This document shows positions 1,956 to 25,621 of a stretch of 61,319 bases of DNA, in pieces. The notes beneath the pieces are model-generated. The model did no database searches, was not told the DNA's origin, and was given only the letters and a program-made list of their open reading frames with translations. Within the stretch, counting starts at the first letter, position 1; every line of letters begins with the position of its first letter. The position numbers and the translations under genes were made by a program. Location: NCBI GenBank assembly GCA_964494905.1, contig CAZBTU010000003.1, forward strand, positions 1-61,319, read 5' to 3'. Source of the DNA: an uncultured Pseudomonadales bacterium. GTDB lineage: Bacteria; Patescibacteriota; Microgenomatia; UBA1400; PJMF01.

Positions 1956-1982
1956 ATTATTCATTTTTAATACTAAAAACTG

Positions 1983-2026
1983 TGGCGCGTATTTTGGCGC
2001 GTATGTGGCGCGAACTGTGATATACT
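1983..2026 (+). promoter_or_regulatory. Fic1 promoter/operator: three phased TGGCGCG direct repeats plus an extended -10
   Basis: TGGCGCG at 1983-1989, 1995-2001 and 2006-2012 (spacing 12 and 11 bp). TGaTATACT at 2018-2026. The ATG at 2034 is only 7 nt after the -10, so the transcript is near-leaderless. Confidence 0.55.
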
Positions 2027-2033
2027 CATTACT

Positions 2034-3086: not shown

Positions 3087-3127
3087 AGCCAAGCTCTTTT
3101 AGTCGAGCATATGTCTTGAGGATACTG

Positions 3128-3168
3128 GCGAAAAATAGTTCCAACTGAGGGTGTGTGAACTCACAGCG
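3128..3168 (+). repeat. Island interspersed repeat, copy C
   Basis: GCGAAAAATAGTTCCAACTGAG + GGTGTGTGAA spacer + CTCACAGC. A degenerate left arm (ATGTCTTGAGGATACTG) lies at 3111-3127. Located in the convergent gap between Fic1 and the 1148-aa gene. Confidence 0.6.
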
Positions 3169-3224
3169 TTTTTCTCTAGAGTTTTTCACACCCTAAGTGC
3201 AACATTGAACTATTCTTACTTTTT

Positions 3225-3261
3225 TGGCACAATTTTTGGCGCGATTATGGCACAATATAGT
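3225..3261 (+). promoter_or_regulatory. Orphan Fic1-type operator/promoter-like element with no downstream ORF
   Basis: TGGCACA (3225-3231), TGGCGCG (3237-3243) and TGGCACA (3248-3254), with the same 12/11-bp phasing as the Fic1 operator. A TATAGT follows at 3256-3261. It points into the 3' end of the convergent 1148-aa gene. Confidence 0.4.
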
Positions 3262-3347
3262 TTGTATTTACTCAAAATGTAACTTTATAAAGTATTTGAA
3301 GATACAGTAATTTTGCTTTATACTGTGGCAAGACCGACAGGGAATAG

Positions 3348-6300
3348 CTAGTTCAATGCTTCAATATATTTATCAATTTGTTCCTTCATGAATGATGTGG
3401 CATTTGATTGATATGATTTTAATAAGTTAATTATTTCACTCGGTGAAATTATCTGTTGCCATTGATCACTTTTTGATTTATAACTTTCAATAAATTCATA
3501 AAAAAATGTAGGATTTTGAGTTACCTCTCTTATGAATATTCTGGCATCTCTCATTTCTCCTGAGTTAAGTAAGATCGGATTGGAAAGAATAAGCTCTTTG
3601 CGATATGTTGGTAAAATCAAAAAAAGATATTCAAATTGTTTTTCCGAAGCAATTGAAGCAAAGAAATTATTAGGTAGACCTGTTGAATTCACTATATCAA
3701 AAACATAGTGTTCACCATGTAGATCTTTTATCCCACTCAATACATTTAGGTAATCCTTAATCATAAAAGTTTCACCTGAATTCATAAAAGCATCTATTTG
3801 ATCAAAATTACTAACAATATTGGCTAGTGTTGTATAACCATAATCATCATAAATACCACGAAATATTTTATTGATTTGATCTTGATTAAGCTGCCCAAAG
3901 TATTCCTTACAAAGGGTAAAGTATGGGTCAGACTCATCTGCAAGATAAAGTTTTTGCAAGAATTCAGTTCGAAAAAGAGTAAACAGAATCAATTGCTTTG
4001 CCATGGGATCGATGACCATGAACTTATCCAAATATTCTGTATCAAGTTTATCTAAATCTCTGATCGCATCAGGGCTTACTGGCACAGTAAGATCAGAAAG
4101 GTTTGGACTAAGAAGAATAAATCGATTGAAGAGTGAACCACCCAGTTTAACATAGATAACGTTACCTGTATTGTCTTCAAATTCAACAACTTCACCGGTT
4201 ATCAATTTTTGTAGAAGTTCTCTGTATAGCACATTGTCATCAAATTCGACAACTTCGCCGGATATGAATTCCTGTGGTAATCGCGGATCAAATCCATACC
4301 AATTTGCATTTGTGTCAACCGCGATAAATCGTAATTGCGAACCTATTTCTCCACTTTTTGTTTCCGGTTTCGGTGCACCAGGTAGATCATCAATTATTTC
4401 ATCAAATACTGCAAGGTTACTCATTAAATAGTCCAATTGATCTCTGAGTTTTTTACTCCCATAAGGATCTCCTGAATATCCTTGATATATTCCAATATAA
4501 TCCTGAAGCAAGCCGCCAATACTCGCGGACGTAGGTGATACACCTGCTATAGCAAGCAGATTCATAATATGATACATCCCACCAGCTAGGTTAGCCGGAT
4601 CAAAGTTTTTCATTAGAAAATCTTTAGAAGGTATATCCCAGTATTTAGATTCTGGGAGCAGTAACGCTAGATCAGCCGCAGTAAATCCTTTTGAAAAAGG
4701 GTCTTCGATCATTGTCTGAGCCAGAAATCCGGAATCAGAATTATTTAATGAACCTATAGGAGTACCTATAAATGGGTTGTTTCTCGTAATCAGTTTTAAA
4801 GCGATAGTTACATCCCACATTGAGGAGTAGAGATCACCGTCATTTTTAACAAGCGCAAAGGCTAATATATCGGAGATAGGAACTTGGTTTTGTGTATGTT
4901 CATATTGTTGAAAAATAAAATTTTGATAATCAGAAAAATATAAAGTAATTTGTTCAATATTTAGCTGTTTAACTGTTGGGTGAAGCGAGTTATACAAAAC
5001 ACAAACGTCGTGGAAATTAGAAAAATTGCTACTGGATAGATGATAAACTTGTTGTAGTGATTCCGATGTTATTGACAAGAATAGAGGATCACTATTATTA
5101 TTTTTTGATAAAGTATAATCCGTGACAACATCATCTAATCCGACGTAGTCAGGATGAACTTGCCAGAAAACAGGCGAGGGGTCGTGATTATATTTTCTCG
5201 CCATTGTTTCATATGTTGAAAATGCATTCGTTAATAACACATCAATTGTTTGATAATTCAGGTTTTCTTTTTCTAATAATTCATATAGTGCTGTCTGCTT
5301 TTCTTCTGGGAATAATTCGATTTGTTCTCGTAACTGATCATCAAAATCTCTTTCTTTTTCCGTAAGGACAGTGATCGCAAACTCGAATAACTTTTTTGCA
5401 GACTCGGGATCACTTAAATCAGCATTTATCATCTGAATAAATTGTGGGTCTGTGAATATATCAATCAGTGCTTCACTAGGTAGTTTAGAGATAAGATTCA
5501 AGGTCTGATGTTCAAACAGTTCTAAAAATTGTGCTCCCATCTCTGTAGTAGTAAGCCACATTAGACCTTTTTGAATAATCATTTGTTCCTGATTATGGAA
5601 AAAATGTTCTACCGATTCACTCGCAGCCGAAACTATATCAGCTGCTGTCGGACCAAAAACTGAAAGTAAATATAATATATTCACTAAGATTAAATCTTTT
5701 TTTAAATCGGCAGCTCTATCACTATTTGTTGCAACTTGTTCAATTCTTGTACGGATTCTGTTTATCTCTCTTGGTATTTTTTGACCCTGTTGTTCCATGC
5801 AGACACACCACTGGACTATTTTTTGTGTCGGCGTAAGACTATCATCACTAAGCACCAAACTTGCAATTTTAGGCTTCAGTTCTTCAAGAGTTTTCAGGGA
5901 TCGTAAACGACTGACGTTGTCGCCATAGCTGTATGCACCTGATCTCTGATCTTCAAGCAATTGGCCATAAACAACAGCGTGTGAATGTTCTCGAGAACCC
6001 TGTGTAGTCCGTAATGTTTGAGTCAGTACACCCATGTGTTTAAGAGTTTTCTCAATTTCACTTTTACCTTTTTCTTTAAGTGTGTTTTCTAAACCAAAGA
6101 AATCATTTATTCTACCAAAAAATTTGGTTCTTCCAATACTTTCAGCAGCTAGTCCATCAAGCGCCATTGCTTTATTGAGGTTCCATTGTTTCAAAAAATC
6201 ATGATTAGCATCTTTTAAAAAAGAAGCTGCTGTATTCCACCAGGTTTTTGACTCAACTGCAAGAAAATCATAATAACTGATTTTATCGGTAAAACCATCT

Positions 6301-6794
6301 TCGCCTGATTCAAGTTTAAGAGTTAGGAAAACAAATTGCCGTAGTTTTTCAATTGAAGTTTGCTCTAGATCTATTTTCCCCAAACAATCTATAATTTGTT
6401 CTGCGTTTGTGAGCTGTTTTTCTACTAATGGACAAAGATCCGCAAATACTTCAATCATACTCATTCGCACATTTCGTTCTTTCGAATTGTTTGGCTGAAG
6501 AGAGGTGACAGAATCAAATGAATAGGGTTTGATGTATTTTAGAAAACGTTCTACCTTAACTGACAACGTTGTGCTAGGTTCTACAAGGATTTCATTTACC
6601 TTATCATCAAAATCATTTGAGCTTATCGTCGATGCATGAACTTTCTTAATGAAATCAGCTTCTTCTTTCAGTAAATGCAGTATTTTCTTTGAAGTTATTG
6701 CATTTATTTCTTCTAATAAACGCGTCTCAGTCAAGAGCTTCTTTCCAATTTCAAAATTCAAAGTATCAATATTTTCAACAGGTTTTTCGTTCAA
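3348..6794 (-). CDS. Large orphan protein (1148 aa), function unknown
   Basis: Uninterrupted 3.4-kb ORF in AT-rich DNA. Apparent TTG start; the next in-frame Met is about 105 codons in. No catalytic motif recognised. Internal duplicated segment SGEVVEFDDN / TGEVVEFEDN (29-nt DNA repeat at 4171-4199 and 4234-4262). Co-directional with the Fic gene 137 nt upstream. Confidence 0.75.
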   Translation of the reverse strand: MNEKPVENIDTLNFEIGKKLLTETRLLEEINAITSKKILHLLKEEADFIKKVHASTISSNDFDDKVNEILVEPSTTLSVKVERFLKYIKPYSFDSVTSLQPNNSKERNVRMSMIEVFADLCPLVEKQLTNAEQIIDCLGKIDLEQTSIEKLRQFVFLTLKLESGEDGFTDKISYYDFLAVESKTWWNTAASFLKDANHDFLKQWNLNKAMALDGLAAESIGRTKFFGRINDFFGLENTLKEKGKSEIEKTLKHMGVLTQTLRTTQGSREHSHAVVYGQLLEDQRSGAYSYGDNVSRLRSLKTLEELKPKIASLVLSDDSLTPTQKIVQWCVCMEQQGQKIPREINRIRTRIEQVATNSDRAADLKKDLILVNILYLLSVFGPTAADIVSAASESVEHFFHNQEQMIIQKGLMWLTTTEMGAQFLELFEHQTLNLISKLPSEALIDIFTDPQFIQMINADLSDPESAKKLFEFAITVLTEKERDFDDQLREQIELFPEEKQTALYELLEKENLNYQTIDVLLTNAFSTYETMARKYNHDPSPVFWQVHPDYVGLDDVVTDYTLSKNNNSDPLFLSITSESLQQVYHLSSSNFSNFHDVCVLYNSLHPTVKQLNIEQITLYFSDYQNFIFQQYEHTQNQVPISDILAFALVKNDGDLYSSMWDVTIALKLITRNNPFIGTPIGSLNNSDSGFLAQTMIEDPFSKGFTAADLALLLPESKYWDIPSKDFLMKNFDPANLAGGMYHIMNLLAIAGVSPTSASIGGLLQDYIGIYQGYSGDPYGSKKLRDQLDYLMSNLAVFDEIIDDLPGAPKPETKSGEIGSQLRFIAVDTNANWYGFDPRLPQEFISGEVVEFDDNVLYRELLQKLITGEVVEFEDNTGNVIYVKLGGSLFNRFILLSPNLSDLTVPVSPDAIRDLDKLDTEYLDKFMVIDPMAKQLILFTLFRTEFLQKLYLADESDPYFTLCKEYFGQLNQDQINKIFRGIYDDYGYTTLANIVSNFDQIDAFMNSGETFMIKDYLNVLSGIKDLHGEHYVFDIVNSTGLPNNFFASIASEKQFEYLFLILPTYRKELILSNPILLNSGEMRDARIFIREVTQNPTFFYEFIESYKSKSDQWQQIISPSEIINLLKSYQSNATSFMKEQIDKYIEALN

Positions 6795-6931
6795 AACATG
6801 TACTTTTTTTTTAGCAAAATTTCTGGCATGTATTTACTTTAACACGATTTTGTTGATTTTGCACAAAAATGTGAGTTCAATACCCTATGAGAATTTGTTG
6901 AAAAAATACCTGTCATTCATTAAATAAAATC

Positions 6932-7966
6932 TTACTTATCACTCAACACATAATAAGTAGACCGACCCTTACCCTCGCGTTTAATTAAACCTAATTCAAT
7001 CAATCTTTGAAAATCGAGTGTTCTGGTAGCCTTTGCCCTATCAGTCAACTTTGAATATGCTCTATCTGTAATAAAACCGTTTTGCTTTATATAATTAATT
7101 AATTTTAAATGATATGTCTCAATTTTAGTTTCAGGGGAATAACCAGTTTGCGGAATTATCTTTTTCACTCTGTGCAACTCATCAATGATACCTTCTGTAA
7201 AATACTCAAGCCAACTAGTGAAATCAATTGTTTCTCTCAATTCATTATAATCACCACATTCACCAACAGTCTGAAAATATTTTGTTACATTTTTATTGTA
7301 ATAGTTCTCAAAACTAAACAGATTAAATGTATTAAGTCCCATTTTTGCCAACAGAACTTTAGTCATTAATCTTGTGGTTCTACCATTCCCATCAATAAAA
7401 GGGTGGATAATAACCATTTGTTTATGAAAAATGCCTGCCAAAATCAAAGAATCCACAATATTTTTATTTCGGATAACAAATGTGGCAAGTTCTGTCATTA
7501 ATTTATTAACTTGATCATGATCAGGAGGTAAAAATACAACCTTGCCTGTTCTAGGATCATTAACAACTACAGGCTTTTTTCTCAGTCTACCTGACTCAAA
7601 ATCAGGTAACAAGCCGCCAATGACTTTTTTATGAACTGCTAAAATTAGATTTAAAGAAATAGATAAATCATCTTTTTTACTAAGATCATTCAAGTATTCA
7701 AGTGCCTCAATATAGTTAAGCACTTCTCGTTCACTATCACGAATGTATTCTGGTCTATTCTTTAATACTTTTTTAACTTCAGTTAAAGGTAATGGATTAC
7801 CCTCAATACTCGTAGATGCAAAGGCAGAAACTTCTCTTGCCTTTCTTTCAAAATCAATCAATACAACTTTGGGAAATCTTTGATTATTGAGTTCTTCGAC
7901 TAATAAAGCTATATACTTTATATTTGAAAGCAGCTTATTTGTAATCGTATACTTTGGCGTAAACAT
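6932..7966 (-). CDS. Fic family protein, class II, with C-terminal wHTH-like domain (paralog of 2034-3086)
   Basis: Fic motif HPFIDGNGRTTR. Inhibitory motif STSIEGN. N-terminus MFTPKYTITNKLL parallels MYTPKFTITSEIT of Fic1. C-terminal LKLINYIKQNGFITDRAYSKLTDRAKATRTLDFQRLIELGLI is HTH-like. Confidence 0.88.
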   Translation of the reverse strand: MFTPKYTITNKLLSNIKYIALLVEELNNQRFPKVVLIDFERKAREVSAFASTSIEGNPLPLTEVKKVLKNRPEYIRDSEREVLNYIEALEYLNDLSKKDDLSISLNLILAVHKKVIGGLLPDFESGRLRKKPVVVNDPRTGKVVFLPPDHDQVNKLMTELATFVIRNKNIVDSLILAGIFHKQMVIIHPFIDGNGRTTRLMTKVLLAKMGLNTFNLFSFENYYNKNVTKYFQTVGECGDYNELRETIDFTSWLEYFTEGIIDELHRVKKIIPQTGYSPETKIETYHLKLINYIKQNGFITDRAYSKLTDRAKATRTLDFQRLIELGLIKREGKGRSTYYVLSDK

Positions 7967-7968
7967 AT

Positions 7969-8004
7969 TAGTCTAATAATAGTCGATTATTAGTCGATTG
8001 TCAA
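7969..8004 (-). promoter_or_regulatory. Fic2 promoter/operator: TTGACA-17-TATTAT overlaid by three phased TAGTC(G/T)A repeats
   Basis: On the minus strand, TTGACA (8004-7999), a 17-nt spacer, then TATTAT (7981-7976). The ATG at 7966 is 9 nt after the -10. On the plus strand, TAGTCTA 7969-7975, TAGTCGA 7980-7986 and TAGTCGA 7991-7997 (11-bp phasing). Confidence 0.6.
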
Positions 8005-9917: not shown

Positions 9918-12380
9918 ATGCATGAATTGACTAGAGTTAATGAAATTAACAAACCGGCAGAGTTACCACCAAAAATCTCCCAGGTAACAGAGAAACCCAT
10001 ACCTCAAGAACTTCAACCATACAAAATTAAATCCGTCACAGAAGTTGGCCTAGAAACCGGCACAACTAGTGTTGTTTGCCAACTCGACAACAAACATGCG
10101 TACAATGCCCAGAGCTTGGCTGCTATTCGAGATCAGTTGGACCAGAATCGAGTTGCGGTAATGTTAGATAACAACTTCAAGGACAAAACCAGTGCTAGCT
10201 GGGTAAAGATCTTCAAGACCGTCAATGGCATAAAAACACTGGTAGCGCGATTTGACCCTCAGAGCAATGTTCTCCATGTTGATCACCACCTCACGACAGC
10301 AGAAATTGGTGAGACACCTCTCAACCAAGAGCTCAACCCAGAATTGCCAGCGTCAACGACACCACTGGTTGTTGCTTTTTTTCGCGGGCTGAGTGAAGGG
10401 ACACTCTTTACCGAAGATGAAAACTTCCCTGGTTGCATTGAATCTCTCAACAACACTTGGGATGCTCACCAATTCATGGTGTTTGTAGATCATTTTGATC
10501 CAGACTCTACAGAGTCATCAATGGCAGTGCTGAAGGCTAGCAGGGACAATGTTAATCACCAGTACTTTGATGAATTGGCAGCAACCACCCTGGACGCCGA
10601 CCACCGCGGGACGTATAGAACTAAAGATGGAGCCTCAAATGCTCGCGAAAAACTGGTCAAGGTACTCTCAGAACTCAGTATCCTGAGTGTACCAAGAACG
10701 ATCAAAGCACTTCAGGTTCTTGAAAATATCACCGACCACAATCAGCTTGCTGAAGCCCTGATAGCCAACAACATGCCAGACGCTGCTCAGTTATATCTGA
10801 ACTTTGAAAAAATATTGCAGTCCACCGAAGCAGTTGCTGAGTCTATGGCGGCACACTACGATGGTCATGGGAACGTGGTCTATAACGTGTTGGCGGGTGA
10901 TACAGAGCTAGATATGGCATACTTGGCGAGTGCTCTCCAGGAGAAATATGGCAAAGAGATCGGTCCAGACGGCATTGAAGTTTGTTTGATAGTCAAAGAT
11001 TATGGCCAGGTTGATGCTAGTAATTTTCCTGATGTTCACGAGTACGGCGTCTGGGTAAGAACCCTGCATGAAGCAGTGGATCTCAATAAATCTGGAGCAT
11101 TGCTTGAACTACTTGGCATCTATGGCCGGAGCACAGCCCGAGGGAACCGAAATGCAATTTCACACGTTTCACAACATGGAGTGACCTTTACTATTACGGG
11201 TACGGCTGATCTACTTGCCGACCTTAATGCAGGGAGCAGGTGGCGCTCTAAAAACGCATGGGGACTGATTAAAACCCTTGAAATGATCTTCGACCGTGAC
11301 CCAGCTTCACACACTATAGAACAATATATTGGATCTCGACCCGATAGTGTGCGCAGGTCCAGAACAATACCGGGGACCAACCAAGAACGAGGCGTTGCGT
11401 TGGACACGATCAGTACGGGTGAGCGAAGTGGTGAACAACGCGTCATCAAGTACCTCATTTATCCACCGGGTGAATCCCCTAATCAGGAATTCATATCAGA
11501 AGTACATACTGCCGGAGTTGCTGCTGCACTCCTTTGGCGTGACGGGCGACAGTTGGTGCTCATCCCAGAAACAATCGGACTTCACATCAAACCAGGGTTC
11601 GTCGGAGCAGAGTTTGAACGTGTTCAGATGCTTAATGATCCCAAACTAAATGAGATGGGTATGCCAATCGTGGAAGACGGGCAACATCAGTTTGCTCAGG
11701 TAAGTGAGCACTCAGAAGCAATGCTAGCCCACTTAGATGACATGAGAAATGTTCCCATAGCTATTTTAGATGCAGGGAAAGTAAGGGTGGCAAGTGCAGC
11801 TGAGTACAAATCAGATGTAACAAACTTACTTGCTGATTTACCAATAGGTTTACTACCTCTGCAGCAGATAGAGATGATACAACAACTAGAGTTTCACTTT
11901 GATCAGAATGAGAGGGTCTTAGTAAATGGCCGCACAAAACCTGATAACATGTTTGTAAAAGTGGACCGAATTGGGCAAACTGACTGGCAGTCAATCAAGC
12001 AAGGACATAGATATGAAGATCAAGTGTCCCTCCTCAGTAGTTTTCTGTTGATGAACCCTGCAGAGATAAACCGATACGCCAGGGGGATGGATTTCAAGAA
12101 CCCTGATGTACAATTTCTATTTATCAGTCGGGCACTCTTTGCTTTGCAGTACAACATAGATAAAATAAAAAGACTTGAAGAAGAGAACAATTATAGTGAA
12201 GTGGAAATCACAAAACTGAAGGTGCGTATTCACCTTGAGATTGTCACATGGGCACTGTCTGATCAAAAAGATTTAAGCAGGTTGCAACAATTAAGTGGAG
12301 AATTACGCAAAAAGCTGCAGGAACATAGACCAAGCACTGCACATCAAGCGAATCAGATGTTCGGTACTTCTGTTGGTTGA
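9918..12380 (+). CDS. Large hypothetical protein (820 aa) with a degenerate DHH/DHHA1-like N-terminal region and a C-terminal coiled coil
   Basis: LHVDHHL (nt 10281-10289), followed by ELPASTTPLVVAFF, resembles DHH motif III and its following helix. VWVRTLHEAVDLNKSGALLELLGIYGRSTARGNRNAIS resembles the DHHA1 ...GGGGHxNAAG segment, but the GGGH is replaced. Resemblance is by eye only. Confidence 0.6.
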   Translation: MHELTRVNEINKPAELPPKISQVTEKPIPQELQPYKIKSVTEVGLETGTTSVVCQLDNKHAYNAQSLAAIRDQLDQNRVAVMLDNNFKDKTSASWVKIFKTVNGIKTLVARFDPQSNVLHVDHHLTTAEIGETPLNQELNPELPASTTPLVVAFFRGLSEGTLFTEDENFPGCIESLNNTWDAHQFMVFVDHFDPDSTESSMAVLKASRDNVNHQYFDELAATTLDADHRGTYRTKDGASNAREKLVKVLSELSILSVPRTIKALQVLENITDHNQLAEALIANNMPDAAQLYLNFEKILQSTEAVAESMAAHYDGHGNVVYNVLAGDTELDMAYLASALQEKYGKEIGPDGIEVCLIVKDYGQVDASNFPDVHEYGVWVRTLHEAVDLNKSGALLELLGIYGRSTARGNRNAISHVSQHGVTFTITGTADLLADLNAGSRWRSKNAWGLIKTLEMIFDRDPASHTIEQYIGSRPDSVRRSRTIPGTNQERGVALDTISTGERSGEQRVIKYLIYPPGESPNQEFISEVHTAGVAAALLWRDGRQLVLIPETIGLHIKPGFVGAEFERVQMLNDPKLNEMGMPIVEDGQHQFAQVSEHSEAMLAHLDDMRNVPIAILDAGKVRVASAAEYKSDVTNLLADLPIGLLPLQQIEMIQQLEFHFDQNERVLVNGRTKPDNMFVKVDRIGQTDWQSIKQGHRYEDQVSLLSSFLLMNPAEINRYARGMDFKNPDVQFLFISRALFALQYNIDKIKRLEEENNYSEVEITKLKVRIHLEIVTWALSDQKDLSRLQQLSGELRKKLQEHRPSTAHQANQMFGTSVG

Positions 12381-12609
12381 TCTGGGTGAGCTTTTGTTGA
12401 CAAATTGCACTTCTTAATCTTTCTCCAAACTAAATAATAGCCTGCAGCAAGAATAATGAACAATCAAACACAAAGCGGTTGTACAAATTGACCTGCCAAT
12501 AATCACTGTTGTTGAACTAATGGTCTCGATCTGAATACTGTGATACTCTAGTTCTTCCGGAAAATAAAAATTACTCTGATTAAACATCTAAGGATTGCTG
12601 GAAAAACAC

Positions 12610-13782
12610 ATGAATTCAATACCAGCCAGCTATCTCAAAACACTGCCAATCTTTCCAAGGACACTCATTAAATATCAACTTGCTACTAACATTTCAATAT
12701 CTCAACTAGTGAACTTAACATCTGATGGAATCGACAGACAAAAATTGGAAAACTGTTTAGATCAAACTGAGCTTGAGTTCATTAAGAATTATCTTAAAGA
12801 AACCAAATCTCATGAGTATCTCTTTGACCCAGGTGTAAGTCGCTTGATTGCCAAGAACCGACTTTTGTTTCACCTCGAGCCAAAGAAACAAAACAAAGAG
12901 GGTACAAGAAAAAAACTAGCTCACCCTCAAACAATCGTATTAGGTTATCCGAAATGCGCAACAACATGGTTTTACACTTTAATCCGCCAGGTTACATTGT
13001 TTGATGTACCGCCAAAAGAAATCGAGTTTTTTGGATCATGGAGATACAGTAAGGGTGAGTCATGGTATCAAAACCACTTCTCTTCGAAAAAACCATCAAT
13101 TGATGTGAGTGTCGGTTCAGTCAGACATTCTGAAATCTGGGATCGCATCAAATCTTATGAAGTTAAACATAAAAACAAGGTCAAAAAGCTCATCTTTGTC
13201 AGACGCCCATCAGAGAGAGCTTTGTCGTTCATTAGGCACAGAAAAGCAAAAGGAGAAGGATACTACAACTTCCCAAGCTACCTAAAAAGTGGATATGTTA
13301 AGTCAATGTTTATTAACACTTCAGATTACAAAACTGACCTAGAAAAGCTCACATCTGTCTTTCAAACTCAAGATTTTTTTATTGTCTTTCAGGAGGACAT
13401 CATTTCAGACCCAAAAGCAACATTCGCCGCTATTATTGCCTTCATGCTTGGTAATAGTGCGAACACTCAGAAAATTTCGAGTACGGTGCGAGCACTCGAT
13501 TTTGCAAGAATTGAAAATCAGAGCACTCAAATCAGAATGTTCCCTTTACTTAAGTTTGCGTATGAACAAGAATATTGGTGGAAAAGTAAGCATTTCCCAC
13601 AGCTTGTATATATTGGTTACGGTATCAGACGAATAGCGGAGCTACTATGCTACACGAATGAAACTGCACAAAGAACAGAGTATAAAAACTTTATCCAAAA
13701 CCATCCTAGAATCATACAGCTGGACCGCATGTATGATCAACTAAAAACATGGCTTGATGGCAATGGCATCGCACATTCGTAA
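12610..13782 (+). CDS. Sulfotransferase-domain protein (PAPS-dependent) with an N-terminal extension of about 105 aa
   Basis: VLGYPKCATTWF matches the 5'-PSB loop (PKxGTTW). FVRRPSERALSFIRH matches the 3'-PB motif (RxPxxRxxS). The track start at 12595 is a TTG; the ATG at 12610 is used here. Confidence 0.7.
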   Translation: MNSIPASYLKTLPIFPRTLIKYQLATNISISQLVNLTSDGIDRQKLENCLDQTELEFIKNYLKETKSHEYLFDPGVSRLIAKNRLLFHLEPKKQNKEGTRKKLAHPQTIVLGYPKCATTWFYTLIRQVTLFDVPPKEIEFFGSWRYSKGESWYQNHFSSKKPSIDVSVGSVRHSEIWDRIKSYEVKHKNKVKKLIFVRRPSERALSFIRHRKAKGEGYYNFPSYLKSGYVKSMFINTSDYKTDLEKLTSVFQTQDFFIVFQEDIISDPKATFAAIIAFMLGNSANTQKISSTVRALDFARIENQSTQIRMFPLLKFAYEQEYWWKSKHFPQLVYIGYGIRRIAELLCYTNETAQRTEYKNFIQNHPRIIQLDRMYDQLKTWLDGNGIAHS

Positions 13783-15406
13783 AGGTATGAACAGTCCTGC
13801 AATCGTTAGACTCAACAAGCAGCAAATTCAAGATGTTGTCAATCTTGCCACGGGTGTATACGCACCACTCACTGGTTTTTTAAAACAAGCTGACTATACA
13901 AGTGTTTTGAATGAGATGAGACTCGCAAACGGAAGTGTATGGACAATTCCAGTTGTATTACACATAGATCATGCAACTGCAGAAGCAATTAATGGGCAAA
14001 ATCAGGTATTACTCTGCGACAAACTTAACAGAGAAATTGGATACATTCTTGATCCAATGATCTTCCCATTCGACCATGCTACGTATGCGGAAGCAGTATT
14101 CGGAACTCTTGATACTCAACATCCTGGTGTCAAAGATGCCGCGCTTGCTGAAAAGTACCTAATTGGTGGAGATGTAGTGCTTACTAGGCAACCTGATGCA
14201 CCTTTCGCAGCATACAATCACACACCGGAACAAACAAAGCAACTATTTAAGCAGAAAGGCTGGCACTCTATAGTTGGATTTCAAACGCGGAATGTGCCAC
14301 ACCGAGGACACGAATTTTTACAAAAAACCGCGCTGAAAGTAGCCGATGGACTATTGATTCAACCAGTTGTCGGAAAGAAAAAAATTGCTGACTTTAAAGA
14401 TGAGTACATTGTGGCCACGTACAATGCATTAATTAAGAAGCGCTACCCTCAAGATAAAGTTTTGTTATCTACGCTATCTTTAAAGATGCACTATGCTGGT
14501 CCACGTGAAGCAGTCTTTCATGCACTGATCCGACGAAACTTTGGGTGTACATACTTCGTTGTTGGTCGCGATCATGCCGGTGTAGGAAATTACTACCCAC
14601 CACTAGCAGCTCAATTAATATTTGATCAATTTACTCGAGAGGAAATGGGAATCGGTATTCTTAAATATGAAGAAGTTGTTTATAATACTACAACAAAAAA
14701 ACATGACTTCATCTCAAATGTACCTACCGCTGCGAGGCAACATTTTAGCGGAACCAAGTTGAGGCAATATGTTTCACAGCAAATTATTGCCCCTGCATAC
14801 CTAGTTCGACCCGAGGTTGCAGAAATATTATGCAGTAGTCCAACTGCGTTAGTAGAACACAAACACAACAGCACTATGACTAAGCCAAGTTTTACAGTCT
14901 GGTTTACCGGTTTGTCTGCTTCGGGAAAAAGCACAATTGCAGACTCAGTGTACCAAGTGCTGGCTGAAAGGCAGTTATCAGTCGAGAGACTAGATGGCGA
15001 TGTGGTAAGACAAAGTCTGACTAAAGATCTGGGTTTTTCTCGAGAAGACAGAATCGAAAACATCAAAAGAATTGGATTCGTTGCAAGCCTACTTAATAAA
15101 AATGGTATTGGAGTTATTGCATCCTTTATTACACCGTATGAGGAGCAAAGAAAACATTTACGAAAAAAACTTGATAACTATATTGAAATTTTTATTAGCA
15201 CCCCACTCGAAACCTGTGAAGAGCGTGATCCAAAAGGCTTGTACAAAAAGGCTAGGACAGGCGAGATTTCACAATTCACAGGTATCTCAGATCCCTATGA
15301 AACTCCAAAAAATCCTGACCTAACCATAGATGCGCTTGATCCTGATCCGACTACATACGTCAACACAGTAATCGATTACTTAAACAAAAAAGGTTTTTTG
15401 GAATAA
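13754..15406 (+). CDS. Bifunctional sulfate adenylyltransferase (ATP sulfurylase) / adenylylsulfate kinase (PAPS synthase)
   Basis: N-terminal domain has GFQTRNVPHRGHEFL and VVGRDHAGVG (ATP sulfurylase signatures). C-terminal domain from about nt 14880 has WFTGLSASGKSTIA (APS kinase P-loop) and ISDPYE. Overlaps the sulfotransferase gene by 29 nt. An alternative ATG lies at 13787. Confidence 0.88.
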   Translation: MMAMASHIRKGMNSPAIVRLNKQQIQDVVNLATGVYAPLTGFLKQADYTSVLNEMRLANGSVWTIPVVLHIDHATAEAINGQNQVLLCDKLNREIGYILDPMIFPFDHATYAEAVFGTLDTQHPGVKDAALAEKYLIGGDVVLTRQPDAPFAAYNHTPEQTKQLFKQKGWHSIVGFQTRNVPHRGHEFLQKTALKVADGLLIQPVVGKKKIADFKDEYIVATYNALIKKRYPQDKVLLSTLSLKMHYAGPREAVFHALIRRNFGCTYFVVGRDHAGVGNYYPPLAAQLIFDQFTREEMGIGILKYEEVVYNTTTKKHDFISNVPTAARQHFSGTKLRQYVSQQIIAPAYLVRPEVAEILCSSPTALVEHKHNSTMTKPSFTVWFTGLSASGKSTIADSVYQVLAERQLSVERLDGDVVRQSLTKDLGFSREDRIENIKRIGFVASLLNKNGIGVIASFITPYEEQRKHLRKKLDNYIEIFISTPLETCEERDPKGLYKKARTGEISQFTGISDPYETPKNPDLTIDALDPDPTTYVNTVIDYLNKKGFLE

Positions 15407-15474: not shown

Positions 15475-16722
15475 CTAACCTAGCTCAATCACGAACGAGG
15501 ACTGTCTCAGTTTGTGCAGGGATTCCGCGAGCTCAATCATATTTTCAGCGTCAATTTTTACCTGATAGTGTTTGTTCAAATGGCTGCACATTGCAACAAA
15601 AGAATCGTGCGTTAAATACGATTGCGCACCACTGTTGAAAAACACTCCTGTCACAAGCTGCTCAAAAGAATATGTGGTCATCCTCACATACGCATCAGCT
15701 TCTTCTCGAGTGTGCGTATCTTGAGTTGTTGCATATTTATTCATTGCCAGTGGAAAATCATGTAACTTGCCCAAGTTTCCGATATCCTTATATGAAAAGG
15801 AAGTATTAATACCGTTTCGCAGTGCAACTGCATAGTTTCTGGTAATAATAAAAGCCAACAACCGAGCCTGAGCTGAAAGAGTCTCTGGCACTTGATGATG
15901 TGATTGGCTACTTTCTCCTAGCTCGCTCTCATGAGGGAGGCGGTGCTGGAGATGATCGGCATACGCTAGTGGTAACGAATAGTATTCACAAAATCTCGCT
16001 TTTCCATTGGCACTCATTTCCGCTTGTAACCAAGCAGCAGATCTCAGAAGTAGAACAGGATTGATAAATGTACGAACATCCAGTCTCTCTGGGTCAGTGA
16101 TACGGACTATGCCGTGAATAAAATCCCTATTACGATACTCAGCATCATTTCGCCAGAATCTCCTTAAGTGTGCCGCATATGTTCTGCCACCACTACCACC
16201 GGTTTCTGCGTCTTCAAAATGTTGGAAGAAAACCTCTTTGGGAACCGAGAGCAGCGCAATGTAGTCACCGACAACTGCGCCGTCTTCTGTCAAAAGCTCG
16301 CCCACGTTCACATCAATCATTGCCTCCGTTATACCTACCACACCCATACTTGATTTGCGGTGACTTTGGGCCGCAACCCACCTTAAATCACGCAGCCCTA
16401 GGCCCTTCACGCTAATGATGCCGACCACATGATATGTGCTGCCATCAGCTAGCCTCTTTGGCAGCAAAACTGGTTCCAAAGCGCTCCCAGCTTCCCGACC
16501 TCTTGTCATAGTTATCTGGGGCAGCGGCTTTTCTTCTGACTTGGTTCCCTGACCTGACACATACATCCGTTCTCTGAGTTCAGCCTCTGATATTAGGTAG
16601 CGAGCGTTAAGGGCAATGTGAACTTGCTCAGATTTACCGATTGGCGATTCTAGAAACCGTACAACTCGAGCTAAATGTTGATCGGAAAAGTTCGGACTGG
16701 GATGGGGAATCTCTTTGATCAC
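15475..16722 (-). CDS. Hypothetical protein (415 aa)
   Basis: Long ORF. Its GTG start overlaps the upstream stop as GTGA (16719-16722). No motif recognised. Confidence 0.6.
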   Translation of the reverse strand: MIKEIPHPSPNFSDQHLARVVRFLESPIGKSEQVHIALNARYLISEAELRERMYVSGQGTKSEEKPLPQITMTRGREAGSALEPVLLPKRLADGSTYHVVGIISVKGLGLRDLRWVAAQSHRKSSMGVVGITEAMIDVNVGELLTEDGAVVGDYIALLSVPKEVFFQHFEDAETGGSGGRTYAAHLRRFWRNDAEYRNRDFIHGIVRITDPERLDVRTFINPVLLLRSAAWLQAEMSANGKARFCEYYSLPLAYADHLQHRLPHESELGESSQSHHQVPETLSAQARLLAFIITRNYAVALRNGINTSFSYKDIGNLGKLHDFPLAMNKYATTQDTHTREEADAYVRMTTYSFEQLVTGVFFNSGAQSYLTHDSFVAMCSHLNKHYQVKIDAENMIELAESLHKLRQSSFVIELG

Positions 16723-17015
16723 AACTTCGAAGGCATTGGGTATCTTTTTCGAATCTCTTCATACAGTGCCGCTTTTTCTCTTCTCACCGAATCTTTCTGG
16801 CGGAAATTAACTTCCTCAGAACTGCCAGTAAAACGAAACATTGGCCTCAAAGCAAGGTGTCCGTTCTCCGCGTAGACTCGATAAAGTTTATCTACCGCAG
16901 CAAGGTGAGCAGCAACAGGATCTGATGGCGGTATGAAATTTGCACCCAGAACTTCGTCTAATAAATGACCCACATGTCTTAGATCATGGTGCATTCCAGC
17001 ACGGTTTTCTTTCAC
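16719..17015 (-). CDS. Hypothetical protein (98 aa)
   Basis: GTG start preceded by GAAGGA 5 nt upstream. Translationally coupled to the 415-aa gene. Confidence 0.5.
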   Translation of the reverse strand: MKENRAGMHHDLRHVGHLLDEVLGANFIPPSDPVAAHLAAVDKLYRVYAENGHLALRPMFRFTGSSEEVNFRQKDSVRREKAALYEEIRKRYPMPSKL

Positions 17016-17064: not shown

Positions 17065-17358
17065 TTACATGCGAATAAATGGCCAACCAGTTCGTCGTTC
17101 CTCACGTTGCTTTTTTTCAGCATCAATCTGATGGGCAGGCTTGCCATCTGTCGAAGAGCTATCAAGGCCATCCAAAAACTCTACAAGTGCACTTATACCT
17201 GACTTCACGAGCAACCCTGTCGGATCCAAGTTCACAACAGTCTTGATCACATCAAGTAGCCCTGGGGCAATAGCGCTTTGAAATGAGTCGGGCTTAGCTG
17301 TGGTCGTACCTCTTAAACTTCGCACTTCATCCCTATAGTAGTTCGTTTTGTCGTACAT
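17065..17358 (-). CDS. Hypothetical protein (97 aa)
   Basis: ATG preceded by a strong GGAGGAG Shine-Dalgarno (17367-17373, minus). Confidence 0.55.
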   Translation of the reverse strand: MYDKTNYYRDEVRSLRGTTTAKPDSFQSAIAPGLLDVIKTVVNLDPTGLLVKSGISALVEFLDGLDSSSTDGKPAHQIDAEKKQREERRTGWPFIRM

Positions 17359-21663: not shown

Positions 21664-22575
21664 ATGACCTCACAGCCAAACAACACCAGCTCCAGTACTA
21701 ACCCAGTCGGGCGTTTTATGGTCGCAGCCGGCGCAGTGATTGAGCATCAAAAAACAGGTAAGATTTTGCTGCTTCAACGTGCTGAATCCCTCGATTGGCA
21801 AGCAGGTAGTTGGGAAATTGACTATGGACGACTTGACCAGTTTGAAGATCCGATTGTTGGTCTTAAACGTGAACTCAAAGAAGAAACAGGCATCACTGAC
21901 TTACATATCGGCAAAACTTTGAGAGTCTGGCACATCTTCCGTGGGCCAGAGACTGCTGAGAATGAACTCATCGGTATAACGTATCACTGCACAACTACAA
22001 CCGATGCTGTCACACTTTCTGCGGAACACCAGGATTACCGTTGGGTTGATGTGGAAGAAGCACTTGCTCTAATCAAAGTAGAAGGTATTAAACAAGATAT
22101 TCAGGCCTTTCAAGCAACCAAACATGCCCTTGCTCAATCGATCGGCAGACAGGTCATTGGTGTGGGCGCAGGAGCTCTGATTTTTGATAGCAGGAACAGA
22201 CTCCTCCTGTCTTTGAGAGGGGCAGGGGCCAAAAACGAAGCCGGCAAATGGGAAATTCCTGGAGGTGCAATCGAGTTTGGTGAAACTATCGAAGATGGTC
22301 TAAAAAGAGAGGTCGAAGAAGAACTCGCAATCAAGATCAAGGTCGGCGAAATGCTACAACTGTGCAACCACATTTTGCCTGATGAAGGTCAACATTGGGT
22401 GTCTCCCACATATCTTTGTGAAATAGTTGCTGGAACACCTACCATTCAAGAGCCAGAAAAATGTGAAAAAATTGGCTGGTTTACAGTTGCCGAAGCCGAA
22501 CTTCTACCGTTAGCACAAGTCACAAGGCAAGACATAGAAATTCTAAAAAGCAGACAGAACCACACGTTCACATAA
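21664..22575 (+). CDS. Tandem (double) Nudix hydrolase
   Basis: Two Nudix boxes: GRLDQFEDPIVGLKRELKEETGI and GGAIEFGETIEDGLKREVEEELAI (Gx5Ex7REUxEExGU). Confidence 0.85.
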   Translation: MTSQPNNTSSSTNPVGRFMVAAGAVIEHQKTGKILLLQRAESLDWQAGSWEIDYGRLDQFEDPIVGLKRELKEETGITDLHIGKTLRVWHIFRGPETAENELIGITYHCTTTTDAVTLSAEHQDYRWVDVEEALALIKVEGIKQDIQAFQATKHALAQSIGRQVIGVGAGALIFDSRNRLLLSLRGAGAKNEAGKWEIPGGAIEFGETIEDGLKREVEEELAIKIKVGEMLQLCNHILPDEGQHWVSPTYLCEIVAGTPTIQEPEKCEKIGWFTVAEAELLPLAQVTRQDIEILKSRQNHTFT

Positions 22576-22657
22576 TTGGCTTGAAGGCACTATCCAAAAT
22601 ACCAGTGAACACATTTCATAATAGCTCGTGTCACTTAGTTATGGTACTGTGGTCGTT

Positions 22658-23212
22658 ATGGAAAACCTAGAAACCATTCGATGCTTTGTTATGGTTGGAC
22701 TTCCCGGGAGTGGCAAAAGTACACTGGCTAAAAAACTTGCTCGCCAGCACGGTTGCACGGTACTCTCATCTGATGAAATTCGGCAAGAGCTACTCAACAG
22801 CAGTCGATTTGACCCCAGAGGAGATGACTTTGTGCGCGAACAAAGTAAGTACGCGTACGAGGTCATGTATGAGCGAGCACTCAAGTTGCTCACCGCGAAT
22901 AAAAAGGTTGTCCTTGACGCCACCCATCTAGATTCAGCTAAGAGAAAAGCAATGATCTCTCGCTTACTTAAAGTTGTTGAACCAGACTCTGTTTGTTTTG
23001 TGGTCGTTAAGCTACCGTATGAACTGATCGACGAGCGCATGTCAAACTATAATCAATTGAAAACAGATGCTGGCGAAACTGTTTATGAGGCATGGAAACG
23101 CGTGATCGCATACGTCCAGCAACACATTCAACAGGGCGAGTATACTTGGCCAACTGAGCAAGAAGGCATTCCTATCTTCAATTATGAAAAACTTAAATCT
23201 CTCTTGGACTAG
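22658..23212 (+). CDS. P-loop kinase of the AAA_33 / polynucleotide-kinase-like type
   Basis: VMVGLPGSGKSTLAKKLA Walker A, followed by SSDEIR (catalytic Asp position as in PNK-like kinases) and VVLDATH. The ATG at 22658 is used; the track start at 22628 is a GTG. Confidence 0.7.
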   Translation: MENLETIRCFVMVGLPGSGKSTLAKKLARQHGCTVLSSDEIRQELLNSSRFDPRGDDFVREQSKYAYEVMYERALKLLTANKKVVLDATHLDSAKRKAMISRLLKVVEPDSVCFVVVKLPYELIDERMSNYNQLKTDAGETVYEAWKRVIAYVQQHIQQGEYTWPTEQEGIPIFNYEKLKSLLD

Positions 23213-23879
23213 TGATATTAAGTGTCTTGCGTGGGATCTGGATGGCACGCTGTACCCACCTGACTCGAGGCTTGACCATGCAATTGAGTCACGAATTACG
23301 GCAGCGGTGGCACGTACACAACAAGTGAGTAGTTCAAGAGCAGAAGAATTGTTCTCAAACACTTACAATAAGTTACGAAGCAAAACAAAGAGTTTATCAA
23401 AACTTGGCATTCCAGGACAAGAATTCTTTCTTAATGTATGGAATGAAGTTGACCTCAGCCAGTTCATACAACCTAACCCTCAACTTGCAGTTGCACTCAT
23501 AGCTCTTTCAGAAAGTGGTAAGTTTGATTTAGCAATCCTCACTAACAGTAATACTAGCTCGACTGTCGCTTCCAAGCTAGCCATGATTGGAATTGATCCG
23601 CACTGTTTCAAGCACATACTCACTTCTGTCGATATCGGTTTTCAAAAACCTGATCCAGAGGCCTTTACTGCTTTGCTGCAAGCAACTAACCACCGACCTG
23701 ACCGAGTATTATATGTCGGTGATCGTGAAAACACAGATATCATACCTGCACAACTAATGGGTCTTAGGACTGCGTTAATAAGAAATAACTCGGCTGATTC
23801 TTCAAGCCAAGCCGATCTGATCATGCCATCGGCACTAGATTTGGCCGAATTTTTTCTCAAGAACACCATCAATGGGTAG
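23184..23879 (+). CDS. HAD-superfamily phosphatase
   Basis: Motif I AWDLDGTLY (DxDGT), motif II ILTNSN, motif III/IV K...YVGDRENTDI. Overlaps the kinase gene by 29 nt. Confidence 0.8.
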   Translation: MKNLNLSWTSDIKCLAWDLDGTLYPPDSRLDHAIESRITAAVARTQQVSSSRAEELFSNTYNKLRSKTKSLSKLGIPGQEFFLNVWNEVDLSQFIQPNPQLAVALIALSESGKFDLAILTNSNTSSTVASKLAMIGIDPHCFKHILTSVDIGFQKPDPEAFTALLQATNHRPDRVLYVGDRENTDIIPAQLMGLRTALIRNNSADSSSQADLIMPSALDLAEFFLKNTING

Positions 23880-23968
23880 GTTATAGCAGTAAGTTATAAT
23901 ACTTCCGTTCCTTAATACACCGATAAATGGATGTTCTGCATACAGATGTCCAATTCAGGAGAAAATCG

Positions 23969-24481
23969 ATGACGATTCAAGTTGTTCTCAGATCAGGGGA
24001 CATTACCACCAATGTCCCAGTAGATTGTTTGATTTCATCCATAAACTCTGAAGGCCTGTGGTTTGGCGGAGTTGATGAAGCGATCCGACGCGTCGCTGGT
24101 GATCAATTTCATAAACAAGCTCTTCAAATGTTGCGACAGTATGGCCTCCATGATGGGCAAGTACTATCACTGCCACAACAATGGGAACACGCAGGCAGCT
24201 TTCATAGCGTGCTGTTTGTGGTTGATGATCTGCAACAGCCACTCAACGTGCTGGTTTTTACCGCACTGAAAAAAGCAGAAAGCTGCGGATTTCGCAGTGT
24301 CGCACTCCCTCTGATGCGAACTGGAGTTGCTGCCGGAATAATGGAGCGCACTCAGCTTGAAGTAGTCCAAGCAATCAAAATGGGCCTACTCCAGTTTCTG
24401 AATGACTATCCTTATTCCAACATGCAGATCAATGTCGTCGCATACGGCATACCTAGTGCGATCCGGCTGTTCTTAATTTAG
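23969..24481 (+). CDS. Macro-domain protein (ADP-ribose / ADP-ribose-1''-phosphate binding or hydrolysing)
   Basis: LRSGDIT...VDCLISSINSEGLWFGGVDEAIRRVAG ... SVALPLMRTGVAAG matches the macro-domain GDIT / N-x-x-L-x-GGGV-x-x-AI / P-x-I-S-T-G pattern. The ATG at 23969 is preceded by AGGAGAA. Confidence 0.7.
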   Translation: MTIQVVLRSGDITTNVPVDCLISSINSEGLWFGGVDEAIRRVAGDQFHKQALQMLRQYGLHDGQVLSLPQQWEHAGSFHSVLFVVDDLQQPLNVLVFTALKKAESCGFRSVALPLMRTGVAAGIMERTQLEVVQAIKMGLLQFLNDYPYSNMQINVVAYGIPSAIRLFLI

Positions 24482-24592: not shown

Positions 24593-25621
24593 CTAAATGG
24601 TTGCGTCAAACTTCGGAAACAAAGCCTCATTGAGTGACTCACCGGTGTAAGTTCGACGAATTGCCTCTGATAATAGCGGCTCAATCGGAACCACTTGAAT
24701 CTTAGGGTGCTGAGTGATTTCAATTGGATGGGGGAGTGAGTTTGTCACCAGCACCTTTTCTATTGGTGAGCTGTCGAGTTTTTTCAAGAAATCACCAAGA
24801 AACAATCCGTGAGCTACAGCAACAAAAATTCTCCGAGCCCCACATTTGGCTGCCAACTCGGCCGCATGGAAAACCGTACTTCCACTCGCAATAATATCGT
24901 CGACAATCAATACATCTTTACCAACTACATCCCCAACCAATTCTACTGCAATTGAGGAGTTATCCGATCGCCTTCGCCTTTTATATATAAAGGCCAAACT
25001 GCTAGCTGTCAGAATGTGCGCGTAATAATCAGCGCGCTTTGTGCCACCAGCATCAGGGGAGAGCAGTACCCCACTCGAAAAACCGAGCTCTCGAATAGCA
25101 GGCACAAGTGAGTAGCTCGCATACAACTCATCCCAAGGCTCTTTGATATAGCCTTGCTGCTGGGCTGAATGATTATCTACTGTTATCAAACGATCAGCCC
25201 CAGCATGAACAAGCAGCTGCGGGAGCAGTGCAGCTGTGATAGGGACCCTGGGCTTGTCTTTTCTGTCTGCTCTTTGGTACGACGCGAACGGCTGCACAAC
25301 TGTGATTTCTTCTGCAGAAGCTCGACGCGCTGCATCAATCAGCAATAAAACTTCTAGAATCGCATCGGCTTGTTTTGGGGGACCAGTTGGCTGAACAATG
25401 AAAACTTCCCGCTTACGCAGATTGGGTGCGATGGCAACTTGTATCTCGCCATCGGGAAAACGCGACACTGGCTCAAAACACTTGATGCGTAATAACTCAG
25501 CAACACCTTGGGCTAAGGCAGGGTATGCGCTTCCAGTTAAGATTACAATTGCTAAAGGATCAAAGTCTCGAATTCCTGCTACTTCAATCTGGCTACATTC
25601 GTCGTCTATTCGCTGTTTCAC
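24593..25621 (-). CDS. prs: Ribose-phosphate pyrophosphokinase (PRPP synthetase), copy 1
   Basis: FPDGEIQV, VQPFASYQRADRK and the PRPP-binding loop VLIVDDIIASGSTV. GTG start with an N-terminal extension of about 25 aa. Confidence 0.85.
   Translation of the reverse strand: MKQRIDDECSQIEVAGIRDFDPLAIVILTGSAYPALAQGVAELLRIKCFEPVSRFPDGEIQVAIAPNLRKREVFIVQPTGPPKQADAILEVLLLIDAARRASAEEITVVQPFASYQRADRKDKPRVPITAALLPQLLVHAGADRLITVDNHSAQQQGYIKEPWDELYASYSLVPAIRELGFSSGVLLSPDAGGTKRADYYAHILTASSLAFIYKRRRRSDNSSIAVELVGDVVGKDVLIVDDIIASGSTVFHAAELAAKCGARRIFVAVAHGLFLGDFLKKLDSSPIEKVLVTNSLPHPIEITQHPKIQVVPIEPLLSEAIRRTYTGESLNEALFPKFDATI

Follow-up and report, generated by a model that had tools for sequence, protein, structure and literature searches.

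Where genes for the synthesis of 3'-phosphoadenosine 5'-phosphosulfate (PAPS) lie with sulfotransferase genes in a polysaccharide cluster, their co-location is regarded as a hallmark of sulfated-polysaccharide synthesis, and the capsular polysaccharide cluster of Vibrio sp. KMM 8419, with cysDNC and three sulfotransferase genes, is a case in point (PMC11641403). The synechan exopolysaccharide cluster (xss) of Synechocystis also carries sulfotransferase genes, PAPS genes not being noted in the accessible part of its description (PMC8205485). As far as that part goes, both clusters follow the same logic, in which a copy of the PAPS supply sits beside PF00685-type sulfotransferases that decorate a surface or extracellular glycan. 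In the NodH/NodPQ system of rhizobia, the RaxST/RaxPQ system of Xanthomonas and the Stf0/CysDNC system of mycobacteria, PAPS is likewise reserved for a sulfotransferase, whose product is a sulfated surface or signal molecule. Here we describe a sulfotransferase gene and a gene for a fused PAPS synthase (ATP sulfurylase and adenosine 5'-phosphosulfate (APS) kinase in one protein) that lie together on contig CAZBTU010000003.1 (hereafter the window, meaning the whole 61,319-nt stretch that was analysed, a complete NCBI contig), and that very probably form a dedicated PAPS-dependent sulfation module. Loci of the Vibrio and Synechocystis type are large, with glycosyltransferases, exporters and CysD, CysN and CysC, whereas the locus studied here consists of two genes, uses a Sat-CysC fusion, has no adjacent glycan genes and belongs to a Patescibacteria genome.

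Patescibacteria generally have reduced genomes and a host-dependent lifestyle. Such a genome had been proposed in an original prediction made from the DNA letters alone, and it fits the label of the sibling sequences in the same protein clusters, MBP9819556.1 ('sulfotransferase domain-containing protein') and MBP9819557.1 ('sulfate adenylyltransferase'), both from Candidatus Woesebacteria (Patescibacteria). The two open reading frames (ORFs) were found where they had been predicted, and the five motifs quoted for them (PKCATTW, RRPSERALS, QTRNVPHRGH, GRDHAG and GLSASGKST) are all present at the expected positions. The pair is made up of the following elements:

12595 to 13782, plus strand: sulfotransferase ORF, TTG start, 395 aa (ORF listing)
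12610 to 12924, plus strand: N-terminal helical domain of the sulfotransferase, residues 1-105 (subfamily alignment and AlphaFold2 (AF2) model)
12925 to 13782, plus strand: Sulfotransfer_1 catalytic domain (Pfam PF00685), beginning at residue 106 of the 390-aa protein
12949 to 12969, plus strand: PKCATTW, 5'-phosphosulfate-binding (5'-PSB) loop (motif check)
13015 to 13032, plus strand: KEIEFF motif with the putative catalytic Glu (alignment with 3-OST-5)
13201 to 13227, plus strand: RRPSERALS, 3'-phosphate-binding (3'-PB) motif (motif check)
13754 to 15406, plus strand: PAPS synthase ORF, TTG start, 550 aa (ORF listing)
13757 to 15406, plus strand: fused PAPS synthase (Pfam, NCBIfam)
about 13793 to 14185, plus strand: PUA_2 domain (PF14306; Pfam E 7e-37)
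about 14213 to 14833, plus strand: ATP-sulfurylase domain (PF01747; Pfam E 6e-73)
14282 to 14311, plus strand: QTRNVPHRGH, ATP sulfurylase motif (motif check)
14564 to 14581, plus strand: GRDHAG, ATP sulfurylase motif (motif check)
about 14888 to 15331, plus strand: APS_kinase domain (PF01583; Pfam E 3e-61), with P-loop GLSASGKST, LDGD and FITPY
14909 to 14935, plus strand: GLSASGKST, APS kinase P-loop (motif check)

The first protein of the pair is predicted to be a PAPS-dependent sulfotransferase. It matches Sulfotransfer_1 at E 3.9e-10, with 40 bits against a gathering cut-off of 22 (residues 111-306 of the 395-aa form), and in an alignment of 20 homologs the PAPS-binding residues are retained rather than lost: G117, T123, T124 and W125 of the 5'-PSB loop, K141, and R203, P205 and S211 of the 3'-PB motif are invariant, while E142, within KEIEFF, is conserved in at least 90% (395-aa numbering). 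The PAPS-binding and catalytic motif residues align with those of human 3-OST-5 (KEIEFF against QEIHFF), and the Glu of this motif is what we take to be the counterpart of the catalytic Glu90 of 3-OST-1. The closest proteins of solved structure by sequence are the heparan sulfate (HS) enzyme 3-OST-5 (E 1e-6) and NDST1. The same group was recovered by fold: with an AF2 model built on the family alignment (pLDDT 88.7, pTM 0.89), the top 18 Foldseek matches were HS 3-OST-1, 3-OST-3 and 3-OST-5, the NDST1 sulfotransferase domain and 3rnl, an uncharacterised Alicyclobacillus sulfotransferase (E 6e-7 to 1e-4). Cytosolic SULTs, Teg14 and TPST scored 100-10,000 times weaker, TPST structures matching at E of about 6e-3 to 9e-3 only, and neither Stf0 nor RaxST was among the top 50 matches. 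Sulfotransfer_3 (PF13469), where NodH is presumably placed, stayed below threshold (15.2 bits against a cut-off of 27, E 0.026), and no sulfotransferase family of Pfam other than these two was matched at E <=10.

Sequence and predicted fold thus place the protein in the HS 3-OST/NDST-like group of Sulfotransfer_1, and not with NodH, Stf0, RaxST/TPST or the cytosolic SULTs. The original prediction had likened the pair to the NodH, RaxST and Stf0 systems, which stands for their functional logic but not for the family; since the sulfotransferase families differ, these systems are therefore analogies of logic and not relatives, and they rely on GTPase-coupled CysD/CysN(-CysC) sulfurylases instead of a Sat-CysC fusion. 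The HS 3-OSTs and NDST (PDB 1vkj, 3bd9, 3uan, 1nst), which are the best matches in both sequence and fold and act on a polysaccharide, share with the window protein the PKxxTT 5'-PSB loop, the K-E-I-x-F-F motif with the catalytic Glu and the RxPxxRxxS 3'-PB motif. Yet identity to them is 16-23%, and the window protein is bacterial and cytoplasmic, without transmembrane (TM) segment or Golgi stem; its N-terminus carries a helical domain of 105 aa that is unrelated to these enzymes, and the helical region at its C-terminus is different too. At the positions that we take to be His92 and Asp95 of 3-OST-1 it has Glu and Gly, substitutions that also appear at those sites in the alignment with 3-OST-5. 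Unlike for the HS 3-OSTs and NDST, heparan sulfate is certainly not the acceptor of the window enzyme.

The N-terminal extension of about 105 aa to which the original prediction drew attention proved to be real, the catalytic domain starting at residue 106, and alignment and model both indicate that it is a conserved, folded orphan domain. The best HMMER matches of the sulfotransferase, 400-440 aa long, can be aligned with it from end to end, N-terminal region included (about 18 relatives), and by their sequences these N-extended proteins (about 400-440 aa) form a small uncharacterised sulfotransferase subfamily. A word-indexed protein search returned only the 90% sibling with the sulfotransferase and three proteins with the family alignment; the small family was recognised because an exhaustive HMMER scan exposed it (1805 matches at E <1e-3, 45 at <1e-10 and 7 at <1e-30). 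A degenerate DNA pattern for G-x-PKCATTW-x-Y led to 4 genome loci and 13 metagenome loci, mostly with short-form sulfotransferases. The N-terminal domain is modelled with a pLDDT of 89.9 alone and of about 94 inside the full-length model, and Foldseek gave no match for it at E <1.5 in the PDB. The highest TM-scores (0.42-0.46) were to tyrosine-recombinase catalytic domains; this resemblance is faint, as is that to sigma-70 region 4 and Phage_integrase (E 0.02-0.09; Foldseek E >=1.5), and we rejected the domain as a tyrosine-recombinase-like or sigma-region-4-like helix-turn-helix. A role for it in the choice of acceptor is plausible.

The second protein was confirmed by Pfam and NCBIfam as the ATP sulfurylase/APS kinase fusion that had been predicted. 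Its best solved relative is the bifunctional SAT/APS kinase of Aquifex aeolicus (2gks), a single-polypeptide PAPS synthetase that it matches end to end (E 8e-108) and with which it shares the domain order PUA-like, ATP sulfurylase, APS kinase; compared with 2gks, the window enzyme is divergent, and its genomic role differs through the coupling to a sulfotransferase. The models TIGR00339 (sopT, 328 bits against a cut-off of 323) and TIGR00455 (apsK, 218 against 139) were both passed, whereas the score for the equivalog PRK05537 (Sat/CysC) was 507.6 bits, under the cut-off of 669. Therefore, it is a divergent member and not a different enzyme. The sulfurylase motifs and the P-loop, DGD and FISP-type motif of the kinase are invariant among 20 fusion homologs, and with these motifs intact the kinase domain is predicted to be competent, unlike the regulatory or inactive kinase-like domains of the Penicillium and Thiobacillus enzymes. 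Named relatives among the top 120 matches were mostly from Patescibacteria. No GTDB species representative was found to have a close relative in a genome scan with the protein. Among the matches listed by an alignment-based scan, the relatives were 33-50% identical; they are not a fair sample of the candidate phyla radiation (CPR) and had a family sulfotransferase within 10 kb in 6 of the 80 loci listed.

The two genes are tightly coupled whichever start codon holds. The sulfotransferase read from ATG 12610 (390 aa) has an identical sequence in the public protein collection, and an exact look-up likewise gave the PAPS synthase on record with an ATG 13757 start (549 aa), one of four candidate starts (13754, 13757, 13763 and 13787). 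The overlap of 29 nt given in the original prediction belongs only to the longest ORF, from TTG 13754; it becomes 26 nt from ATG 13757, and ATG 13787 (MNSPAIV...) leaves a 4-nt spacer instead, the tight adjacency itself being retained throughout. This last ATG is also the point at which the called start of a homologous gene aligns in another locus (L083), where the sulfotransferase P0122, 38% identical to that of the window, overlaps the next gene by 4 nt. The 75 visible residues of that next gene closely resemble the N-terminus of the window's PAPS synthase; the junction between sulfotransferase and PAPS synthase is thus conserved at 38% sulfotransferase identity. No TM-like or signal-like segment was found in either protein, and their chemistry is therefore cytoplasmic.

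A contig about 90% identical to the window (L002) carries the same pair, and comparison of the two bears on whether the pair could be a recently acquired, non-adapted or decaying horizontal insert that has no current role. Both genes have a lower GC content than their surroundings (0.379 for the sulfotransferase and 0.407 for the PAPS synthase, against 0.454 and 0.462 for the flanking genes at 9918-12380 and 15475-16722), as also at third codon positions (GC3; 0.368 and 0.324 against 0.428 and 0.425), and a clearly foreign low-GC island lies 5 kb upstream. This hints at acquisition or insertion as a two-gene cassette, and the pair was possibly acquired horizontally; a search for flanking repeats, as the mark of a mobile element, found none. 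Against loss of function, both frames are intact and all catalytic motifs are kept, and the ratio of nonsynonymous to synonymous substitutions (dN/dS) between the two lineages, at a dS of about 0.3, is 0.17 in the sulfotransferase gene and 0.10 in that of the PAPS synthase, indicating purifying selection. The region directly upstream (12516 to 12609, plus strand) is also conserved at about 93% identity to L002, while further upstream the two sequences are unalignable or deleted, and it may serve the two-gene unit as promoter or 5' leader. Around the pair, this region included, no Rfam family was matched, and no convincing promoter or terminator pattern was found around the pair. An insert with no current role is thus the most improbable of the explanations that we considered.

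What the sulfotransferase acts on is suggested by its relatives elsewhere, as all seven informative contexts of the N-extended subfamily outside the window's lineage are glycan loci. Upstream of P0122 are methyltransferase-like and capsule-synthesis-like genes (read from translations, with no Pfam scan). P0125 (L085) is followed by a NeuB-like synthase, P0127 (L089) comes after a GT4-like C-terminus and P0128 (L090) before a cytidylyltransferase-like gene, all three contexts again being read from translations. The neighbours of P0126 (L086) include a Wzx-type flippase, methyltransferases, two GT4s, a polysaccharide deacetylase and AsnB. P0140 (L087), one of two tandem N-extended sulfotransferases (span 2038-4560), comes after a Wzt that carries a Wzt_C domain, and downstream of the tandem are an epimerase, heptose genes, a CMP-sugar synthetase, NeuB and a third sulfotransferase. 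In L188 (638-8735), the locus of an N-extended sulfotransferase contains Wzm, an adjoining ABC-transporter ATPase, a methyltransferase and a PseB-like dehydratase. ABC-transporter genes and nonulosonic-acid genes (NeuB, CMP-synthetase, PseB-like) were thus seen together near N-extended sulfotransferases in both L087 and L188, contexts that raise the idea of a terminal sulfate cap in ABC-transporter-dependent glycan assembly.

The relatives of the PAPS synthase point the same way. Those at 53-57% identity are found in glycan clusters, fused to a GT4 or before a CysQ-like gene: P0008 lies in a cluster with GT2, GT4, Sulfotransfer_2, Wzm and Wzt, P0007 (L096 3261-6098, 945 aa) is fused to a GT4 glycosyltransferase, and P0005, on a Pacebacteria contig, has a CysQ-like Inositol_P gene immediately downstream. 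P0037 (809 aa) is a PAPS synthase relative fused to UDP-glucose dehydrogenase domains, and together with P0007, likewise from a metagenomic contig, it offers Rosetta-stone evidence that links this PAPS synthase clade to glycan synthesis. Sat/CysC or the fusion stands beside Sulfotransfer_1-type and glycan genes in unstudied loci of other Patescibacteria as well (Dojkabacteria L151, Saccharibacteria L092, Moraniibacteriota L094 and Pacebacteria L097). The Candidatus Dojkabacteria metagenome-assembled genome L151 (7898-18731) has a compact locus with Wzm, Wzt with Wzt_C, sat and cysC as separate genes, four Sulfotransfer_1 genes and a WsaF-like glycosyltransferase of 1143 aa. The Saccharibacteria and Moraniibacteriota contigs carry short-form sulfotransferases, the latter beside glycosyltransferase-like ORFs (by translation). 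In contrast to the window protein, these Patescibacteria sulfotransferases are of the short form (about 260-310 aa) or have an N-terminal extension unrelated to its own, and their genes are embedded in complete glycan clusters. One of the L151 sulfotransferases was considered as a sharer of the window's N-terminal domain and rejected, as its extension is unlike and unrelated to that of the window.

The original prediction had left a surface glycan, a lipid or a peptide as the sulfated product; the evidence now favours a glycan, and we consider this the probable acceptor in this organism too. The main rival is a dedicated sulfation cassette with a non-glycan acceptor. Small metabolites, lipids, glycolipids, proteins and peptides would all come into question, an adjacent orphan protein possibly among them, and this rival stays alive because no glycan genes adjoin the pair, in the window or in L002. 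The neighbours are the following:

9918 to 12380, plus strand: soluble orphan, 820 aa, upstream of the pair
15475 to 16722, minus strand: soluble orphan, 415 aa, downstream and convergent
16719 to 17015, minus strand: soluble orphan, 98 aa, downstream and convergent
17065 to 17358, minus strand: soluble orphan, 97 aa, downstream and convergent

A gene-free gap of 229 nt separates the 820-aa orphan from the sulfotransferase ATG at 12610, and an alpha/beta hydrolase and a major facilitator superfamily transporter lie beyond the downstream orphans. The 820-, 415- and 98-aa orphans are conserved in L002 with dN/dS of 0.11-0.19, and the purifying selection on the two larger ones (0.11-0.15) is in favour of a role for them as acceptors; the fourth gene is interrupted in L002 by the contig end. 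No Pfam match, PDB sequence match or TM segment was found in the flanking orphans, and, against such a role, none of the other sulfotransferase and PAPS synthase loci fetched contains a homolog of them. We therefore regard them as lineage-specific neighbours and not as conserved partners, and a role as acceptors is not supported. A non-glycan acceptor would also agree with an N-terminal domain that has no known carbohydrate-binding relative, and with the breadth of Sulfotransfer_1, which includes small-molecule and natural-product enzymes such as Teg14, SULTs and AdpST (PMC12135136). Yet the neighbours of the window protein in fold and sequence are polysaccharide sulfotransferases, with SULT, Teg14 and TPST far behind in score as described above, and the informative subfamily contexts, without exception, are glycan loci. 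A non-glycan acceptor thus seems unlikely to us, if the least unlikely of the alternatives.

A different possibility is that the PAPS synthase serves assimilatory sulfate activation and feeds PAPS to a CysH encoded elsewhere, the adjacency to the sulfotransferase being incidental or secondary. The chemistry of the fused enzyme is indeed the first half of the assimilatory route, and the visible part of the genome is 61 kb. The Pfam scan covered the contig ORFs of at least 150 aa, except five inside or overlapping longer ORFs, at thresholds of E 1e-5 to 0.01; over these ORFs no PAPS_reduct (PF01507), sulfite-reductase (NIR_SIR) or Inositol_P/CysQ family was matched and cysH, cysI, cysJ, sir and cysK were not found. 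The absence of a reductase nearby, as originally predicted, therefore extends to the scanned ORFs of the whole 61-kb contig, where the reductase linkage of an assimilatory cys-type operon is lacking. Also against this alternative, the two genes overlap or abut and their junction is kept in the distant locus described above, and close relatives of the enzyme are found in glycan or sulfotransferase clusters or beside CysQ, not in cys operons. To our knowledge, Patescibacteria generally lack sulfate assimilation, which we also count against it. In its favour is a PF01507-family gene near the PAPS synthase of one relative (L095, 4940-5800, 5 kb away). This gene sits in a neighbourhood of glycan, toxin-antitoxin and PAPS synthase genes and may be a true CysH or another member of the superfamily. 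Overall, we consider assimilation a highly improbable role for the pair.

A dedicated sulfated product, as proposed originally, is thus supported by the conservation of the motifs, the conserved junction, the lack of assimilation genes in 61 kb and the sulfation contexts of relatives, and a self-contained cytoplasmic glycan-sulfation cassette is probably the best overall explanation of the pair. Several observations weigh against it. In both the window and L002 the pair lacks a flanking glycosyltransferase, flippase, Wzm/Wzt or sugar-nucleotide gene, and the contig's only glycan genes, about 20 kb off, are GT4/GT5-like, GH57 and GH15 genes that look like storage-glucan metabolism. A similar fold at about 20% identity does not reveal which acceptor an enzyme takes, and neither a sulfate transporter nor a PAP (3'-phosphoadenosine 5'-phosphate) phosphatase was identified on the 61-kb contig. 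With the view limited to this contig, a cysH may lie elsewhere in the genome and PAPS may have two uses. The PF01507 gene of L095 also weighs against the explanation. PAPS seems to be made solely as a sulfuryl donor, which one contig cannot prove.

Under this glycan-sulfation explanation, the ATP sulfurylase part of the fused enzyme would make APS, which the C-terminal APS kinase would phosphorylate to PAPS, so that sulfate and 2 ATP are consumed. The upstream, translationally coupled Sulfotransfer_1 enzyme would then pass the sulfuryl group from PAPS to the acceptor, with release of PAP. The sulfuryl group would most likely go to a sugar hydroxyl (or amino) group on the precursor of a cell-surface glycan, for instance a polysaccharide of the cell-wall, S-layer or capsule type that is lipid-linked or still growing, and sulfation would precede export. 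The N-terminal helical domain, specific to the subfamily, probably helps in selecting or positioning the acceptor, or else anchors the enzyme at the machinery of glycan assembly.

WbdD adds methyl or phosphate caps, and by analogy the N-extended sulfotransferases might be a new glycan-modifying class in which the orphan domain docks to cytoplasmic glycan assembly and a terminal sulfate 'cap', in ABC-transporter-dependent pathways, controls chain length, being read by the C-terminal carbohydrate-binding domain of Wzt; Woesebacteria would then have captured the pair as a portable cassette to remodel their surface. We offer this full scenario as a speculation that is improbable as it stands.

Elsewhere in the window, three regions deserve mention in their own right. 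The low-GC island (1-8000; GC 0.30-0.345, GC3 of about 0.22 against 0.44-0.47 for the housekeeping part) contains an APH(6)-like kinase (83-1000, minus strand), Fic-domain proteins (2034-3086, plus strand, and 6932-7966, minus strand) and a 1148-aa orphan with one TM-like segment (3348-6794, minus strand), and it has the look of cargo gained by horizontal transfer that may be interaction- or toxin-related. At 21664-24481 (plus strand) and 24593-25621 (minus strand), a double-NUDIX protein, an AAA_33-type kinase, a HAD phosphatase and a Macro-domain protein beside phosphoribosyl pyrophosphate synthetase suggest ADP-ribose or nucleotide salvage or signalling. The lysyl-tRNA synthetase (52133-54244, plus strand, 703 aa) has a class II core to about residue 501 and a C-terminal extension of about 200 aa that has no Pfam match.

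In terms of novelty, the architecture of PAPS supply plus sulfotransferase is already known and the genes are domain-annotated in GenBank, and current concepts are unchanged because this logic is established in rhizobia, mycobacteria, Xanthomonas, cyanobacteria and marine bacteria. What is new is the minimal two-gene form in a Woesebacteria lineage, the recognition of a subfamily of uncharacterised sulfotransferases that share an orphan N-terminal domain, and the suggestion that Patescibacteria make sulfated surface glycans. Our literature search found no paper on sulfated glycans or sulfotransferases in Patescibacteria, and the linkage of sulfotransferase and PAPS synthase recurs across CPR lineages (Dojkabacteria, Pacebacteria, Saccharibacteria and Moraniibacteriota). 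Compact cassettes that combine PAPS supply with a sulfotransferase could also serve the engineering of sulfated polysaccharides. If active, the cassette costs a Woesebacteria cell 2 ATP per sulfate, a considerable outlay for a minimal genome, and its product is therefore a candidate determinant of surface charge, host attachment and phage or predator evasion in Patescibacteria. Should the capping scenario prove true, it would provide a first sign that Patescibacteria have surface glycans bearing sulfate, which might play a part in host attachment.

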